Virus record (IMG/VR): IMGVR_UViG_3300045988_002471
Location: 1 to 41,003 of that record
Origin: a virus
Lineage: Duplodnaviria; Heunggongvirae; Uroviricota; Caudoviricetes
DNA: 41,003 nt
Strand: one strand, 5' to 3'
The notes under the pieces are model-generated. The model ran no database searches and had not been told where the DNA came from. It saw nothing but the letters and a program-made list of their open reading frames with translations. Positions 1,169 to 6,648 of this stretch are shown in pieces; within the stretch, counting starts at the first letter, position 1; each line of letters starts with the position of its first letter. The position numbers and the translations under genes are program-made.

Positions 1169-1192
1169 AAGGCCCTTCATTGGGCCTTTTTA
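1169..1192 (+). terminator. Rho-independent terminator hairpin (AAGGCCC-ttcatt-GGGCCTT + T-run)
   Basis: GC stem followed by TTTTTA directly after the SSB-like gene. Confidence 0.6.
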
Positions 1193-1203
1193 CCGGAGTC
1201 AGA

Positions 1204-1677
1204 ATGGAACATATAAAAGATTTTCTAAGCTACGACCGAGAAACCGGGGTATTCACGTGGATACAGCCTACTTACCGTCGAGGGCGACCGGGAGACATCG
1301 CGGGGTGCATCAATAGTAGTGGATACTGGCGAATTCCGTACATGGGTCGATATTACATGGCGCACAGGCTGGCGTGGTTTTTCGAGTATGGTGAATGGCC
1401 CGAAGGTCCTCTTGATCATATAAACCGTGACAGGTTAGACAATAGGATTTCTAACCTAAGGAAAGCAACAACCGCCGATAATGTGCGAAACGCTAAAAAT
1501 AAGGGAGCTAGAACAGGAGTAAAGGGAGTAGTTAAAAACGGCAACCGATTTTACGGGCGTGTGCATTTTAACTACAAAAGTTATAACGCCGGTAGCTACG
1601 GAACTCTTGAAGAAGCAGAAAGCGCTGTAAAGAAATTAAGAGAAAAACTGCACAAGGAATTTTATTGCCATGACTAG
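1204..1677 (+). CDS. HNH homing endonuclease with C-terminal AP2 domain
   Basis: DHINRDRLDNRISNL HNH motif and GVKGV...GRVHFNYKSYNAGSYGTLEEA AP2-like region; start moved to ATG 1204 after RBS GGAG because the track start lies in the terminator. Confidence 0.75.
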   Translation: MEHIKDFLSYDRETGVFTWIQPTYRRGRPGDIAGCINSSGYWRIPYMGRYYMAHRLAWFFEYGEWPEGPLDHINRDRLDNRISNLRKATTADNVRNAKNKGARTGVKGVVKNGNRFYGRVHFNYKSYNAGSYGTLEEAESAVKKLREKLHKEFYCHD

Positions 1678-3847
1678 TTTATTATACCTGGATACCGAGA
1701 CGTTCTCTGGAGCGGACTTAAAGAAAGTCGGGTCGTATGCGTACGCGGAGCACCCGACGACAGAGGTTATAATTTGCACATATGCCGTTGATGATGGTCC
1801 TGTAGAAGTATGGGATTGCACTTCCGAAACAGTAATGCCAATAAGCCTCCGTGTTGCGCTCCGTAATGTTATGCGCGGACGTATGAAAATCGTGGGCCAT
1901 AACTTTTTAATGTTCGACCGTCTCATCATGAAGCACTGCTGGGGTTTTGATATTCCCGTAAGCAACACCATTGATACGATGATTTGGGCGTTTCGTCACG
2001 CGCTGCCGGGTTCACTCGACGCATTGTGCGAAGTGCTTGGCGTGTCTGCAGACAACGCGAAAGACAAACGAGGCAAAGCGCTTATTCAGCGTTTCTCTAA
2101 ACCGACGCCGAAGAACTACAAAATTCGCCGCTACACTGCTGAAACGCACCCGGATGAGTGGGCGCTGTTCATCAAGTACGCCGTTAGCGACATCACCGCG
2201 ATGCGTGAGGTCTTCCATAAGTTGCCGCGTTGGGGTAACTCAGAGTTTGAAGACCGTGTACTGGAACTGGACCAGTTAATTAACGACCGCGGGTTTAAGG
2301 TCGACGTTGCGCTGGCGGAAGCCGCAATTGAAGCTGTGGAGAAACACAAGGCACAGTTACAGGAAGAAGCCCAACGTAAATACGGCGGCTCGCTTACAGG
2401 TAAGGACTTCCTGCCGATTCTGCGTGAACTGGCGCCTGCGCATCGCATCCACAACGCGCAGAAGTCTACGCTTAACGACCTGCTTGCTGACGATGATTTA
2501 CCGGACGACGCCCGCACGATTATAGAAATGCGCCTCGGGGCGGCATCCACTGCGTCAACGAAATATAACCCGCTGCTGTTAGGCCGCTCGTCTGACGACC
2601 GCCGTCGCGGTTGCATCCAGTATGGTGGAGCTAAACGTACGTTACGATTTGCTGGTAAAGGCTTCCAGCCGCAGAACCTGGCGCGTGGGTACTATCACGA
2701 TGATGAACTGGATAAAGGTATTTCAGCATTACTTAAGGGCCGAGCACATCGCCGTTTTGATGTAGCCAAGCTAACGGCATCTACGGTTCGCAGCTGCATT
2801 ATCCCGGAAGCCGGACATAAGTTTGTCGTCGCCGACTACTCGAACGTTGAAGGCCGCGGGCTTGCGTGGCTGGCGGGGGAAGAAACCGCGCTAGATACGT
2901 TCCGTGCCGGACTGGATATTTACTGCGTAACCGCGGGTAAGATGTTCGGTATGGAGCCGGATTACATTAAGAAAGAACGTAAAGATTTGCGCCAGATTGG
3001 TAAGGCCTGCGAACTTGGGCTTGGCTATGCGGGCGGTGTCGGCGCATTCGTACAGTTCGCCAAGAACCTTGGCCTTGACCTGGTTGATATGGCAAAAACA
3101 ATGGATGGGACTTTCCCCGACCACATCTGGGCCGCTACCTCACGTGGATATGAGTGGGCGCGTATTCAGGAAGCCAAGCGACCACCACGTCCAGGTGAAA
3201 AGGATGACCGACCATCATATATTCTTGATAAGAAAGTGTGGCGTACCTGTGACGCTATCAAGCGTATGTGGCGTGAGTCACACCCGGAAACAGTAGCTTT
3301 CTGGCGGGATATTGAAGACGCAGCTATGGCAGCTATCCGCAATCCGGGCAAAGAGTTCACCGCAGGGCCGCGGGGAGTTAAGTTTTCGCGCAACGTAGAA
3401 ACGGACAACAACGGCAACAAAGTCGCCGGTTGGTGGTTGCGGATGACGTTGCCGTCGGGCCGCGTTATGTCTTATCCGGGTGTTGGGCTAAGCGTGTCGA
3501 AAGAGACAGACGAAGACGGGAAGGTGTCTACCAACGTGCGCATCAAGTACCAGGGCGAAAACCAGTTAACCCGTCAGTGGGGCTTCCAGTACACCTACTC
3601 TGGTAAACTGGTGGAAAACTGCACTCAGGCGCTGTGCCGTGATTTGTTGGCTAATGCACTGCTGAACGTCGAAGCAAACGGCTACCCGATTGTGCTTCAT
3701 GTTCACGATGAGATTATCTGCGAGACACCAGATTTACCAGAATACAATGTCGCAGAACTGGAACGATTGATGTGCGAATTACCAGAGTGGGCCGAGGGGT
3801 TCCCTCTTGTAGCAGAAGGCGCGGAGATGAAGCGTTATGCCAAGTAA
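1670..3847 (+). CDS. DNA polymerase, family A (Pol I-like) with 3'-5' exonuclease domain
   Basis: 725 aa; N-terminal LYLDTETF Exo I motif; C-terminal polymerase region with HVHDEI; start overlaps HNH stop. Confidence 0.85.
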   Translation: MTSLLYLDTETFSGADLKKVGSYAYAEHPTTEVIICTYAVDDGPVEVWDCTSETVMPISLRVALRNVMRGRMKIVGHNFLMFDRLIMKHCWGFDIPVSNTIDTMIWAFRHALPGSLDALCEVLGVSADNAKDKRGKALIQRFSKPTPKNYKIRRYTAETHPDEWALFIKYAVSDITAMREVFHKLPRWGNSEFEDRVLELDQLINDRGFKVDVALAEAAIEAVEKHKAQLQEEAQRKYGGSLTGKDFLPILRELAPAHRIHNAQKSTLNDLLADDDLPDDARTIIEMRLGAASTASTKYNPLLLGRSSDDRRRGCIQYGGAKRTLRFAGKGFQPQNLARGYYHDDELDKGISALLKGRAHRRFDVAKLTASTVRSCIIPEAGHKFVVADYSNVEGRGLAWLAGEETALDTFRAGLDIYCVTAGKMFGMEPDYIKKERKDLRQIGKACELGLGYAGGVGAFVQFAKNLGLDLVDMAKTMDGTFPDHIWAATSRGYEWARIQEAKRPPRPGEKDDRPSYILDKKVWRTCDAIKRMWRESHPETVAFWRDIEDAAMAAIRNPGKEFTAGPRGVKFSRNVETDNNGNKVAGWWLRMTLPSGRVMSYPGVGLSVSKETDEDGKVSTNVRIKYQGENQLTRQWGFQYTYSGKLVENCTQALCRDLLANALLNVEANGYPIVLHVHDEIICETPDLPEYNVAELERLMCELPEWAEGFPLVAEGAEMKRYAK

Positions 3848-3968
3848 ACTGATTATCGCGGTACTGGCGGGATTTGCTGCCGGTGTCTACTGTCACGAGG
3901 GTCAATACGGCATGATGGTTGCTATATTGGGTATGTTCATCGCAATTTATCTGTGGGTGCTGGAATGA
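3837..3968 (+). CDS. Small hydrophobic protein (43 aa), putative membrane peptide
   Basis: Own translation MPSKLIIAVLAGFAAGVYCHEGQYGMMVAILGMFIAIYLWVLE; below the ORF-track size cutoff. Confidence 0.3.
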   Translation: MPSKLIIAVLAGFAAGVYCHEGQYGMMVAILGMFIAIYLWVLE

Positions 3969-4063
3969 AAATCTACTGGTTTTATGAAGAAGACTGTCGA
4001 ATCTGTCCGCGCTGCGGTATTGAACATACGAAACGTGAGGGGTGTATAGATGAGTACGCCTGA
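3965..4063 (+). CDS. Small CxxC...CxxC zinc-ribbon-like peptide (32 aa)
   Basis: Own translation MKIYWFYEEDCRICPRCGIEHTKREGCIDEYA; ATGA overlap with upstream stop; overlaps VRR-NUC start. Confidence 0.25.
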   Translation: MKIYWFYEEDCRICPRCGIEHTKREGCIDEYA

Positions 4064-4355
4064 GGGGCGCATCCAGAAATACGCAAAAGAGCGATTCGAG
4101 GCCCTCGGTGGCCTCGTTCGAAAGCTGTCTTATGAGGGGCGCTCAGGCGCCCCCGACCTGCTGGTAATTCTTCCCGGCGGCATCGTCTGGTTCGTCGAGG
4201 TTAAGAAAGACGAAAACACGAAGCCAGACCCGCACCAGATACGTGAGCACGAGCGGATGCGTAAACGCGGTGCAAATGTTTTTGTAGTTGGTTCGCTCAA
4301 ACAGGTTGACGACCTAATAGCAAACTATTATAGTAGTCATACACCAACAATATAA
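4050..4355 (+). CDS. VRR-NUC domain nuclease (PD-(D/E)XK)
   Basis: 101 aa with GAPDLLVI...VWFVEVKK (D...E-V-K) core; RBS GAGGGG upstream. Confidence 0.7.
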   Translation: MSTPEGRIQKYAKERFEALGGLVRKLSYEGRSGAPDLLVILPGGIVWFVEVKKDENTKPDPHQIREHERMRKRGANVFVVGSLKQVDDLIANYYSSHTPTI

Positions 4356-4366
4356 GGAATTGAGAA

Positions 4367-4561
4367 ATGAAACACGAATACGACCGCAAACCAGCACGTG
4401 ACATCGTACCTGGCGACATGATTTTCAACGTTAAGACCCGTCGCCCTGTTGCCGTTGATACGGTGTTCGTCGAGTCGAACGGTAAACTGGTTATCGAAGA
4501 TGTAACGGGCAACGTTACCGCGTTCGGGCGTAAAGAGCTGGTACTCTACGTTAAGGATTGA
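4367..4561 (+). CDS. Hypothetical protein (64 aa)
   Basis: ORF with RBS AAGGA; between VRR-NUC and helicase. Confidence 0.45.
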   Translation: MKHEYDRKPARDIVPGDMIFNVKTRRPVAVDTVFVESNGKLVIEDVTGNVTAFGRKELVLYVKD

Positions 4562-4563
4562 GC

Positions 4564-5988
4564 ATGTCTAAATTTATCCGTCGAGAGTACCAGAAGCTCA
4601 TGACTTCGTTCATGTTGCAACACCCTCGCTGTAATATCTGGTGCGGCATGGGAGGGGGTAAAACCTCCTCTACTATGTGGGTGCTAAATCGACTGTTCCG
4701 TAATGGGCAACTTAATGACGACGACCGAGTGTTAATTCTGGCCCCTTTACGTGTTGCGTCCGGTACGTGGCCCGCAGAACAAGAGAAATGGAACTTCCCT
4801 TGTCTGCGTGTCGTCGATGCGACCGGTTCAGAGAAGCGCCGCATCGCGGCGCTGGAGTCAGATGCTAACGTGGTGTGCACAAACTACGAAGTTATCGAGT
4901 GGCTGATTGACTACTACGGCAAAGACGACTGGCCTTTTACGGTTATCGTTGCTGATGAGAGCACGAAGCTGAAATCTTTCCGTAGCCGTTCTGGAGGAAG
5001 CAAACGGGCTAAGGCGCTAAGCAAAGTGGCGTTCGGAAAGGTTAAGCGTTTCATTAACCTGACAGGCACACCGTCGCCGAACGGCCTCAAGGACTTGTGG
5101 GGGCAGAACTGGTTTATCGACGCTGGCGAGCGCCTTGGTTCTTCGTACACGGCATTCACCGACCGCTGGTTTAACTCAGTACAGAAAGGCAAGTCGGCGA
5201 TGGCGCGGGAGTACCACGCACGCCCGGGCGCGGATAATGAAATTCACCAGAAGATGAAAGACATAAGCCTCACTATTGACGCCGCTGAGTGGTTCGGGTG
5301 TGAAGCGCCGATTATTGTTCCGGTTGAAATCGACCTGCCGAAGAAAGCACGTCAGGCGTACATCGATATGGAGGAGAAGTTATTCGCGGAACTTGAGAGC
5401 GGGGAAGTGGAAGCTGCTAACGCTGCTGCGAAGACGTCGAAGTGCTTGCAAATTGCATCCGGTGCCGTATATGTATCGGGGCCAGACGGCGAAGCAACCA
5501 AAGAATGGGAGAAAGTGCACGACACGAAACTGGACGCGCTTGAGTCGATTGTGGAGGAGTTACAGGGTGCGCCGCTGCTTGTGGCCTATCAGTTCAAGCA
5601 CGAACTGGAGCGTATCCTTAAGCGATTCCCACAAGCACAGGCGTTTGCCAAAGGAGCGAAGGGTAATAAGCAGATGGAAGCGTGGAATCGTGGAGAAATC
5701 GAAATCTTATGCGTACATCCTGCGTCAGCGGGCCACGGCATATCGCTACAAGACGGCGGCCATCATATGGCGTTTTTCAGTCAGGGATGGAACCTCGAAC
5801 ACTATTTGCAGGTTATCGAGCGTATAGGTCCAACACGGCAAAAGCAATCTGGGTACAATCGCACCGTTTTTATCTACAAGATTATCGCTAAAGATACGTT
5901 GGATGAAGTAGTTGCGGCTCGTACCGACGAGAAAAAACAAGTACAAGACATACTACTAGAGTATATGAAGCGCAGAGGTAAAAAATGA
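4564..5988 (+). CDS. SNF2/DEAD-like superfamily 2 DNA helicase
   Basis: GMGGGKT Walker A-like, VIVADESTKLK DExx box, LTGTPSPN motif; start set to ATG 4564 after RBS AAGGA. Confidence 0.8.
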   Translation: MSKFIRREYQKLMTSFMLQHPRCNIWCGMGGGKTSSTMWVLNRLFRNGQLNDDDRVLILAPLRVASGTWPAEQEKWNFPCLRVVDATGSEKRRIAALESDANVVCTNYEVIEWLIDYYGKDDWPFTVIVADESTKLKSFRSRSGGSKRAKALSKVAFGKVKRFINLTGTPSPNGLKDLWGQNWFIDAGERLGSSYTAFTDRWFNSVQKGKSAMAREYHARPGADNEIHQKMKDISLTIDAAEWFGCEAPIIVPVEIDLPKKARQAYIDMEEKLFAELESGEVEAANAAAKTSKCLQIASGAVYVSGPDGEATKEWEKVHDTKLDALESIVEELQGAPLLVAYQFKHELERILKRFPQAQAFAKGAKGNKQMEAWNRGEIEILCVHPASAGHGISLQDGGHHMAFFSQGWNLEHYLQVIERIGPTRQKQSGYNRTVFIYKIIAKDTLDEVVAARTDEKKQVQDILLEYMKRRGKK

Positions 5989-6482
5989 CCTATTGGAATG
6001 AGCTTTTTAATTACGACCCTAATACCGGGGTACTATCATGGAAAAAGTGGCGTAGGGGTGCAAAAAGAAGTTTAGTAGCGGGCACAAAGGAGCGTGACGG
6101 GTATGTGCGTGTGAAACATAAAAACAAGCATATCCCCGTTCACAGAATAATTTGGGATATGTGCAACCCTAATGATGTTCTGACTCCCGGATTCGAGATA
6201 GACCATATAAATCACATAAGGGATGACAATAGAATATTAAACTTGAGAAAAGTAGTTAAGATTGATAACAACCGCAACACGACAAGAAACAAGGCTAATA
6301 CTTCTGGGGTTGTAGGTGTACATTTTAACCGTTCGAGAGGTAAATGGGTCGCCGTTATCTACGACAATCGTAAGCTCGTTTTCTTGGGGCACTTCTCTGA
6401 TTTCAAAGACGCTGTTGCTGTCAGGAAAGCAGCGGAAATAAAATACAATTACCACGAAAACCACGGGTCAGAAAAACCATGA
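5985..6482 (+). CDS. HNH homing endonuclease with AP2 domain (paralog of 1204..1677)
   Basis: IDHINHIRDDNRILNL HNH motif plus SGVVGVHFNRSRGKWVAVI AP2-like region. Confidence 0.75.
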   Translation: MTYWNELFNYDPNTGVLSWKKWRRGAKRSLVAGTKERDGYVRVKHKNKHIPVHRIIWDMCNPNDVLTPGFEIDHINHIRDDNRILNLRKVVKIDNNRNTTRNKANTSGVVGVHFNRSRGKWVAVIYDNRKLVFLGHFSDFKDAVAVRKAAEIKYNYHENHGSEKP

Positions 6483-6616
6483 ACATCATAGCCCCGATTC
6501 CGGCATTGCAAAAACGTATCAAGGAACTCGAAGAAGAGGTTCTACGACTACGGCAGCAAAGAGACGCCGCTAATGCACAACTGGCGTTCATACTGGAGAA
6601 GTTATCTGAAGGGTAG
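6479..6616 (+). CDS. Small coiled-coil protein (45 aa)
   Basis: Own translation MNIIAPIPALQKRIKELEEEVLRLRQQRDAANAQLAFILEKLSEG; ATGA coupling to HNH stop. Confidence 0.3.
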   Translation: MNIIAPIPALQKRIKELEEEVLRLRQQRDAANAQLAFILEKLSEG

Positions 6617-6620
6617 AGAA

Positions 6621-6648
6621 AAGGCCCCGTTTGGGGCCTTAGTTTTAT
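6621..6648 (+). terminator. Rho-independent terminator (AAGGCCCC-gttt-GGGGCCTT + T-run) ending the plus-strand early operon; convergent with tailspike 3' end
   Basis: Perfect 8-bp GC stem then AGTTTTATTT. Confidence 0.7.

Follow-up and report, generated by a model that had tools for sequence, protein, structure and literature searches.

Two free-standing HNH-AP2 genes beside the DNA polymerase and helicase genes of a Kagunavirus genome: likely homing endonucleases at optional insertion sites

Gene order and the two HNH-AP2 genes

The window analyzed here, the whole 41,003-nucleotide stretch of IMG/VR record IMGVR_UViG_3300045988_002471, is a Kagunavirus genome (K1-type E. coli phage; Guernseyvirinae) from a metagenome assembly. 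In a nucleotide search, its first 7 kb matched phages K1H, K1G, UTI-CM001, and L AB-2017 at 92 to 95% identity, with approximately 80% of the 7-kb query covered by matches that were split over several pieces. The ENA metagenome scaffold WENC17-2_SAMN06111991 scaffold_330 was identical to the window at all compared places, and a Logan contig from SRR5091484 was 100% identical to it across 8.5 kb. Two genes of the HNH-AP2 type, termed HNH-1 and HNH-2, are located in the following order of features (coordinates are those of the window):

Window start: DUF2800/PD-(D/E)XK nuclease gene, 3′ end only
523 to 1149, + strand: gene for a Gp2.5/Enc34-like ssDNA-binding protein (SSB) (Pfam Enc34_ssDNA-bd, 1e-15)
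1169 to 1192, + strand: hairpin and T-run resembling an intrinsic terminator (fold, conservation, fBC-Eco01 annotation)
1194 to 1677, + strand: HNH-1 insert, including the ribosome-binding site GGAG at 1195 to 1198 (junction alignments, blastn breaks)
1204 to 1677, + strand: HNH-1 coding sequence, 157 aa, with an I-HmuI-like HNH (HNN) domain and a C-terminal AP2 fold
1670 to 1677, + strand: 8-nt overlap of the HNH-1 stop and the polymerase start (sequence)
1670 to 3847, + strand: family A DNA polymerase gene, 725 aa (Pfam DNA_pol_A plus an exonuclease domain)
1678 to 1923, + strand: polymerase 5′ tract linked to HNH-1, the type II allele (allele comparison)
Between the polymerase gene and VRR-NUC: small ORFs
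4050 to 4355: VRR-NUC
4564 to 5988, + strand: SNF2-type DNA helicase gene (Pfam SNF2-rel_dom)
About 5690/5850 to 5984, + strand: helicase 3′ tract linked to HNH-2 (allele comparison)
5985 to 6482, + strand: HNH-2 coding sequence, 165 aa (Pfam HNH_3, 1e-8; PHROG 99, 2e-58)
6479 to 6616, + strand: conserved 45-aa ORF, the 3′ neighbor of the HNH-2 slot (PHROG 5915, 1e-27)
Beyond the 45-aa ORF: convergent endosialidase tailspike gene

The product of the SSB gene is annotated in relatives as an ssDNA binding and annealing protein. Within 441 to 469, 5′ of this gene, there is a near-consensus sigma-70 promoter (TTGACA, 17 nt, TATAGT). At the other end of the region, a strong GC-rich hairpin (6621 to 6640) that resembles a two-way terminator is located between the convergent 45-aa ORF and tailspike gene.

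The hairpin downstream of the SSB gene has the form AAGGCCC-TTCATT-GGGCCTT (1169 to 1188) and is followed by T’s up to 1191; its folding energy is −13 kcal/mol (z = −2.1). The 44 nt that contain it are present in >120 related phage records, with 100% identity among the matches listed, and a terminator is annotated at the equivalent place in the fBC-Eco01 record. A simple terminator scan did not list the hairpin at 1169 to 1192, probably because two of the T’s were consumed by full extension of the stem; the hairpin was retained as a terminator despite the scan because of its fold energy, its conservation, and the independent annotation. In junction alignments, empty genomes have the terminator, then TAAGGGTC(A/G)AAAATA, and then the polymerase ATG. 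Since the terminator is present in insert-free phages too, it is a backbone feature that lies outside the insert.

HNH-1 starts at ATG 1204, behind GGAG at 1195 to 1198, and not at TTG 1180. Its stop codon is TAG 1675 to 1677, and the polymerase ATG at 1670 is located inside its reading frame. The sequence of the overlap, ATGACTAG, is kept in all HNH-1 phages and suggests translational coupling of the polymerase gene to HNH-1, while an AAGGA motif 11 nt 5′ of the polymerase ATG may permit independent initiation of the polymerase. The initial annotation, which had placed a terminator hairpin ahead of HNH-1 and had the gene overlap the polymerase start by 8 nt, was right on both positions; the hairpin does not, however, belong to the insertion, as it precedes the polymerase gene in insert-free phages.

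The HNH-1 protein is 100% identical to AQN31995.1, which is annotated as an HNH endonuclease in phage P AB-2017, and its orthologues are already in GenBank as HNH endonucleases. The gene has been listed as specific to P AB-2017 relative to phages G and L AB-2017 (PMC5582158), and the best identity outside Kagunavirus is at most 45%. HNH-1 matches Pfam HNH_3 (2e-15; 56.5 bits against a cut-off of 24.8), and both HNH-1 and HNH-2 match PHROG 99 at approximately 1e-58. The structure predicted for HNH-1, with high confidence, comprises an I-HmuI-like HNH domain and, C-terminal to it, the AP2 fold that characterizes the HNH-AP2 class. Residues D71, H72, and N93 align with the catalytic residues D74, H75, and N96 of I-HmuI; the match to I-HmuI in a PDB sequence search was marginal (E = 0.46). 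D71, H72, N80, N93, and N96 are invariant in a family alignment of 50 sequences, and the catalytic residues of the beta-beta-alpha-metal type (the Asp-His general base pair and the metal-binding Asn) are intact in HNH-1.

HNH-2 has the same DHIN...DNR...NLR...N pattern and matches Pfam HNH_3 (1e-8; 35.1 bits against a cut-off of 24.8), with a weak AP2 match of 18.7 to 21.5 bits that falls under the 33.3-bit cut-off. HNH-2 is an exact ORF-sized insert that shares one ATGA with each neighbor: its start codon overlaps the stop of the helicase gene, and its stop codon overlaps the start of the 45-aa ORF. The two HNH proteins share 34% identity over 154 aa (E = 3e-18), and a tblastn search of the whole window with both found no third copy or remnant. 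The nearest cultured relatives of HNH-2 are Salmonella Jerseyvirus proteins at 57 to 58% identity, one of which, in SenTO17, occupies the same slot. Given the 34% identity and a nearest cultured relative of HNH-2 in the same slot of a Jerseyvirus, the sequences indicate that HNH-1 and HNH-2 are independent acquisitions of distant members of one family and not the result of an in-genome duplication. The gene at 5985 to 6482 lies directly after the helicase gene and belongs to the family to which it was first assigned, but the term “paralog” used for it does not hold. HNH-2 is an undescribed allele that is seen solely in metagenomes.

An intron-encoded HNH gene of the I-HmuI or I-TslI type was also considered and was rejected on two grounds: no Rfam family, group I introns included, matched in the window, and the polymerase frame runs without interruption from 1670, with HNH-1 5′ of it. 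A tRNA scan of the window was likewise empty. HNH-1 and HNH-2 are free-standing ORFs with boundaries at gene junctions.

Optional occupancy of the two junctions and the linked tracts

Both genes had been proposed to be insertions of the mobile type, and comparison with relatives, some with empty sites and some with other cargo at these fixed junctions, supports that proposal. The genes are sporadic, not universal: HNH-1 is present in 6 of approximately 130 cultured relatives (P AB-2017, fBC-Eco01, KMB36, TPH05A, MC04, and EM1), and the body of HNH-2 was found at the DNA level in 0 of 562 cultured records. The remaining cultured records align with the HNH-1 region just through the terminator and then diverge, with the exception of a few weak matches to unrelated HNH genes. 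Among 32 IMG/VR contigs with an SSB/polymerase junction, 2 were occupied versus 30 empty, and the occupancy of HNH-1 is approximately 5 to 6%. The left edge of the HNH-1 insert is directly after TTTTTAC, at position 1193, and blastn alignments break at 1193 and 1697. Junction alignments with K1H, L AB-2017, TH07, and type II empty sites place the insert where empty sites have a 17- to 18-nt spacer and the first polymerase codons, both of which it replaces. Phage Bas75 has a 51-aa ORF as cargo before its polymerase gene (L012:1686-1841).

Over its first ∼255 nt, the polymerase gene of the window is 95 to 100% identical to that of the six HNH-1 phages, versus 35 to 78% to that of insert-free phages. 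From about polymerase nt 260, the window is 100% identical to K1H for approximately 900 nt. Positions that distinguish K1H from P AB-2017 were taken as informative sites; the window is P AB-2017-like at 91/95 of them between 1143 and 1921 and K1H-like at 76/76 between 1924 and 2848. A sharp recombination breakpoint is therefore present at 1921 to 1924, and the polymerase gene of the window is a chimera with a type II 5′ end that is K1H-like from 1924. A second small mosaic segment is found within the K1H-like part of the gene, where 10 consecutive informative sites at 2860 to 2950 are P AB-2017-like.

Across 278 cultured records, the 5′ allele of the polymerase gene occurs solely in the six HNH-1 phages, no record lies between 92% and 77% nucleotide identity to it, and at the protein level the gap extends from 93% down to 69%. 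Linkage of this allele to HNH-1 without exception was overturned by three Kagunavirus contigs (IMG/VR 3300045988_039442, _014834, and _013393) in which the SSB/polymerase junction is empty and the polymerase is of a related type II. Their polymerase begins MPNLLYLDTETFS... and is 88 to 90% identical to the HNH-1-linked tract, and past nt 255 it represents a distinct lineage. The presence of a type II 5′ end in empty-site contigs means that the tract is a piece of a natural second polymerase lineage and is not unique to the cassette. These three contigs might represent the ancestral home of HNH-1 or, alternatively, genomes that have lost it. One common type II/type I junction, at about polymerase nt 255, is found in all HNH-1 phages, and thus the chimera of the two types probably formed once.

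An identical HNH-1 protein was detected in at least 21 metagenome contigs, each time in the SSB/polymerase slot. Around HNH-1, metagenome contigs share an island of 96 to 100% nucleotide identity (approximately 1147 to 1910), with flanks that are mostly 82 to 93% identical. Further along the gene, the polymerases of KMB36 (L007:1963-5058) and metagenome contig L019 are 1031 aa long owing to an in-frame insertion of ∼300 aa at window position ∼3010; the insertion had no Pfam match and could be an unrecognized intein or another in-frame mobile insert.

At the second site, relatives align with the window to 5988 and then again from 6479. In L AB-2017 the site is empty: a single ATGA holds both the helicase stop and the start of the 45-aa ORF, which directly follows the helicase gene. 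At least 23 metagenome contigs encode an identical HNH-2 protein, each time in the slot that separates the helicase gene from the 45-aa ORF, and the tailspikes of these contigs differ (endosialidase, GDSL-lipase, BNR-sialidase, and others). Two allele types exist for the final ∼120 nt of the helicase gene, and the 8 best matches to its last 139 nt all come from phages in which the helicase gene is directly followed by an HNH gene or a remnant of one. Metagenome contigs L020 and L022 are ∼100% identical to the window at about 5690 to 6540, while other parts of their helicase genes are 87 to 92% identical. The divergent tract linked to HNH-2 is thus the last ∼130 to 300 nt of the helicase gene.

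The same slot holds other cargo in other phages: a 61-aa ORF in K1H (L009:6788-6973), a Toprim-domain protein in TH07 (L011:6162-6677), and a different HNH-AP2 gene in ORH_001. In fBC-Eco01, the conserved 45-aa ORF is missing and the helicase gene is followed by a 41-aa ORF (L006:7857-7982) that consists of the first 23 codons of the ORH_001-type HNH-AP2 gene and then unrelated sequence; this ORF is a decayed homing endonuclease gene in the HNH-2 slot. Both slots, before the polymerase gene and after the helicase gene, are general insertion hot spots, and the interval from the polymerase gene to the helicase gene is a patchwork of optional genes. Many relatives have a gene for a C5 cytosine or other DNA methyltransferase just 5′ of the helicase gene (as seen against L009, L008, and L022), and in EM1, KMB36, and MC04, additional HNH genes follow the polymerase gene or precede the VRR-NUC gene. 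None of those methyltransferase or extra HNH genes is present at 3968 to 4563 of the window. The helicase of TPH05A (vB_VIPECOTPH05A; L005:5551-8016) is 821 aa long instead of 474 and has an in-frame insertion at the Walker A region (window ∼4652 to 4668); because the insertion matches Hom_end_hint and LAGLIDADG_3, it was identified as an intein with its own homing endonuclease. Intein-containing helicases are also annotated in several Jerseyvirus records, and the helicase of the window has no intein.

Intronless homing and the alternatives

HNH-1 and HNH-2 are, in our assessment, likely to be free-standing HNH(HNN)-AP2 homing endonuclease genes that spread among coinfecting Kagunaviruses by intronless homing, and they may still be mobile. 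A divergent tract linked to each insert is expected if the cut sites lie in insert-free alleles. The tracts are asymmetric, to the right of HNH-1 and mainly to the left of HNH-2, which suggests that, in insert-free relatives, HNH-1 targets the 5′ end of the polymerase gene and HNH-2 the 3′ end of the helicase gene; this agrees with the initial annotation, which had suggested cut sites in these genes. The tract at 1678 to 1923 probably holds sequence that differs from the HNH-1 target. A GCC-box-like motif, CGCCGCC, is present at about polymerase nt 195 to 205 in insert-free alleles and absent from the HNH-linked allele (four sequences); it was considered as a possible AP2 binding site and was not relied upon, given the four sequences and the derivation of the specificity from plant AP2 proteins.

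The proposed course of events is as follows. HNH-1 would be made at a low level from read-through of the SSB terminator, and HNH-2 would be translated through its ATGA coupling to the helicase gene. In a mixed infection, the AP2 domain would bind a site in the insert-free allele of the adjacent essential gene, which for HNH-1 would be the initial ∼250 bp of type I, the common polymerase allele, and for HNH-2 the final ∼130 to 300 bp of the helicase gene, and the I-HmuI-like HNH domain would nick or cut at the bound site. The break would then be resected and repaired off the insert-bearing genome, a process that would copy the nuclease gene and, along with it, the variant tract next to it; this tract is presumed to be resistant to cleavage. 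In the simplest history, HNH-1 would at first have been located upstream of a type II polymerase gene and would have entered type I genomes along with the initial ∼255 nt of that gene. A later transfer would have placed the whole cassette (P AB-2017-like, 1194 to ∼1923) in a K1H-like genome and so given rise to the window; the crossover coincides exactly with the edge of heterology. Some observations weigh against this scenario. The chimera probably has a single origin and therefore speaks less strongly for repeated independent homing than tracts of different lengths would. In addition, a type II lineage exists without HNH-1, and mosaics of this kind could also arise through ordinary homologous recombination among lineages.

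Both genes are under purifying selection that is as strong as that on the SSB, polymerase, and helicase genes. The dN/dS of HNH-1 is 0.01 to 0.07 at dS values of up to 0.56 and that of HNH-2 is 0 to 0.02, values as low as those of the three replication genes in the same genome pairs; HNH-2 shows 23 to 26 synonymous and 0 to 2 nonsynonymous changes between genomes, and relative to three of the contigs its 23 to 26 substitutions are all synonymous. For pairs outside the recent ∼100% block, the dS of HNH-2 is 0.27 to 0.31 versus 0.61 to 0.73 for the helicase gene, and this value, less than half of that of the helicase gene, fits a more recent spread of HNH-2 across backbones. HNH-1 and the SSB gene have similar dS values in the same genome pairs, and much of the history of HNH-1 is therefore vertical.

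Selection of the strength seen on essential genes could also mean that the nucleases benefit the phage. They might be kept as weapons of interference competition rather than as purely selfish genes, with HNH-1 locked in by the dependence of polymerase translation, an explanation that we regard as rather unlikely. Cutting the polymerase or helicase gene of coinfecting relatives would exclude those markers and favor the alleles of the carrier, and the loss of HNH-1 would be costly because the polymerase is translationally coupled to it. The low dN/dS values agree with such a role, as do the polymerase start codon within the HNH-1 frame, the disappearance of the native polymerase ribosome-binding spacer, and the presence of identical proteins across many different backbones; domestication and neofunctionalization of such genes are discussed by Barth et al. 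(PMC10448857). If true, this explanation would account for purifying selection of essential-gene strength despite low prevalence. That prevalence is itself low for a clearly beneficial trait, however, and the AAGGA motif may release the polymerase from its dependence on HNH-1. The mechanism, cutting of the empty allele, is the same as in homing, and the sequence data do not separate the two.

We consider it very unlikely that the genes are passengers of ordinary mosaic recombination, that is, once mobile and now inactive nucleases or non-cleaving DNA-binding proteins, with the linked tracts merely reflecting recombination of two polymerase and two helicase lineages. The occurrence of the type II polymerase lineage without HNH-1, the single type II/type I junction common to all HNH-1 phages, and the non-nuclease cargo in the same slots (the Bas75 51-aa ORF, the TH07 Toprim protein, and the K1H 61-aa ORF) would all be compatible with passengers. 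Against this reading stand the intact and invariant D-H...N catalytic residues, the very strong purifying selection along the full length of both genes, the low dS of HNH-2 relative to its host helicase gene, and the islands of near identity centered on the nuclease genes. A role as accessory packaging or replication proteins, like HK97 gp74, which assists the terminase, is hardly credible and was rejected on distribution and genomic context: the HNH proteins of fBC-Eco01 have been said to possibly “promote the packaging process” (PMC9825357), but ∼95% of close relatives are without the genes, which lie in the replication module and do not adjoin the terminase gene, their HNH_3 plus AP2 type is unlike the HNH type found beside terminase genes, and the terminases of these phages group with those of headful packagers (PMC5582158).

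Relation to known systems

If HNH-1 and HNH-2 are homing endonuclease genes, they represent a known kind of mobile element and leave the understanding of homing endonuclease function unchanged. For annotation, both genes are best described as free-standing HNH-AP2 homing endonuclease genes, and the polymerase gene is to be described as a chimera. The locus would offer a natural system for intronless homing outside T4, with two different nucleases in one small genome and with sequenced relatives in the empty, occupied, alternative-cargo, and remnant states. Cultured partners on the same K1 host are available with HNH-1 (P AB-2017) and without it (G and L AB-2017). In phage therapy, K1 cocktails that mix such relatives would be expected to swap segments of replication genes at both sites.

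The T4 endonucleases SegF and SegG bring about intronless homing with a cut in the neighboring gene, and flanking markers are copied along. The arrangement at the present locus resembles that of SegF, SegG, and MobE in that the nuclease gene is intergenic, the neighboring gene of the endonuclease-free phage is thought to be cut, and flanking markers are co-copied. The Seg proteins are GIY-YIG enzymes, whereas HNH-1 and HNH-2 combine HNH_3 with AP2, and the activity of the T4 enzymes is experimental, whereas that of HNH-1 and HNH-2 is predicted. MobE, which mobilizes itself together with flanking DNA (PMC2790892), belongs to a class in which HNH_3 is paired with a zinc finger and not with AP2 (PMC10448857).

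The structural counterpart of the HNH-1 nuclease domain, I-HmuI (PDB 1U3E), is encoded in a group I intron of the SPO1 DNA polymerase gene, unlike HNH-1, in whose window no intron was detected. I-HmuI nicks one strand. Its C-terminal DNA-binding region differs from that of HNH-1, where the C-terminal domain is an AP2 domain.

The closest counterparts are the HNH-AP2 genes of other phages, an established class of homing endonuclease genes located at recombination boundaries beside essential phage genes (PMC10448857). Those of the Xanthomonas oryzae phages Xp10, OP1, and Xop411 and the AP2-associated HNH genes of ICP1-like phages have the same plan, with an N-terminal HNN nuclease and a C-terminal AP2 domain. 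The conserved boxes of phage HNN-AP2 proteins, HRLAW, WP, DH, DNR, and NLR (PMC2248197), are all matched here. Phage HNH-AP2 genes are free-standing beside essential genes, often that of the DNA polymerase, as in the window (PMC10448857), and intact, truncated, and remnant copies are found among the relatives analyzed here. The sequences themselves differ from those of known HNH-AP2 genes (≤45% identity for HNH-1, outside Kagunavirus, and ≤58% for HNH-2). In the literature, we found no mapped cut site for known HNH-AP2 relatives and no results of cleavage or coinfection for HNH-1, HNH-2, or their close relatives. What sets the present genes apart from their known HNH-AP2 relatives is that their linked flanking tracts have been resolved, together with one breakpoint that is defined to within a few bases.
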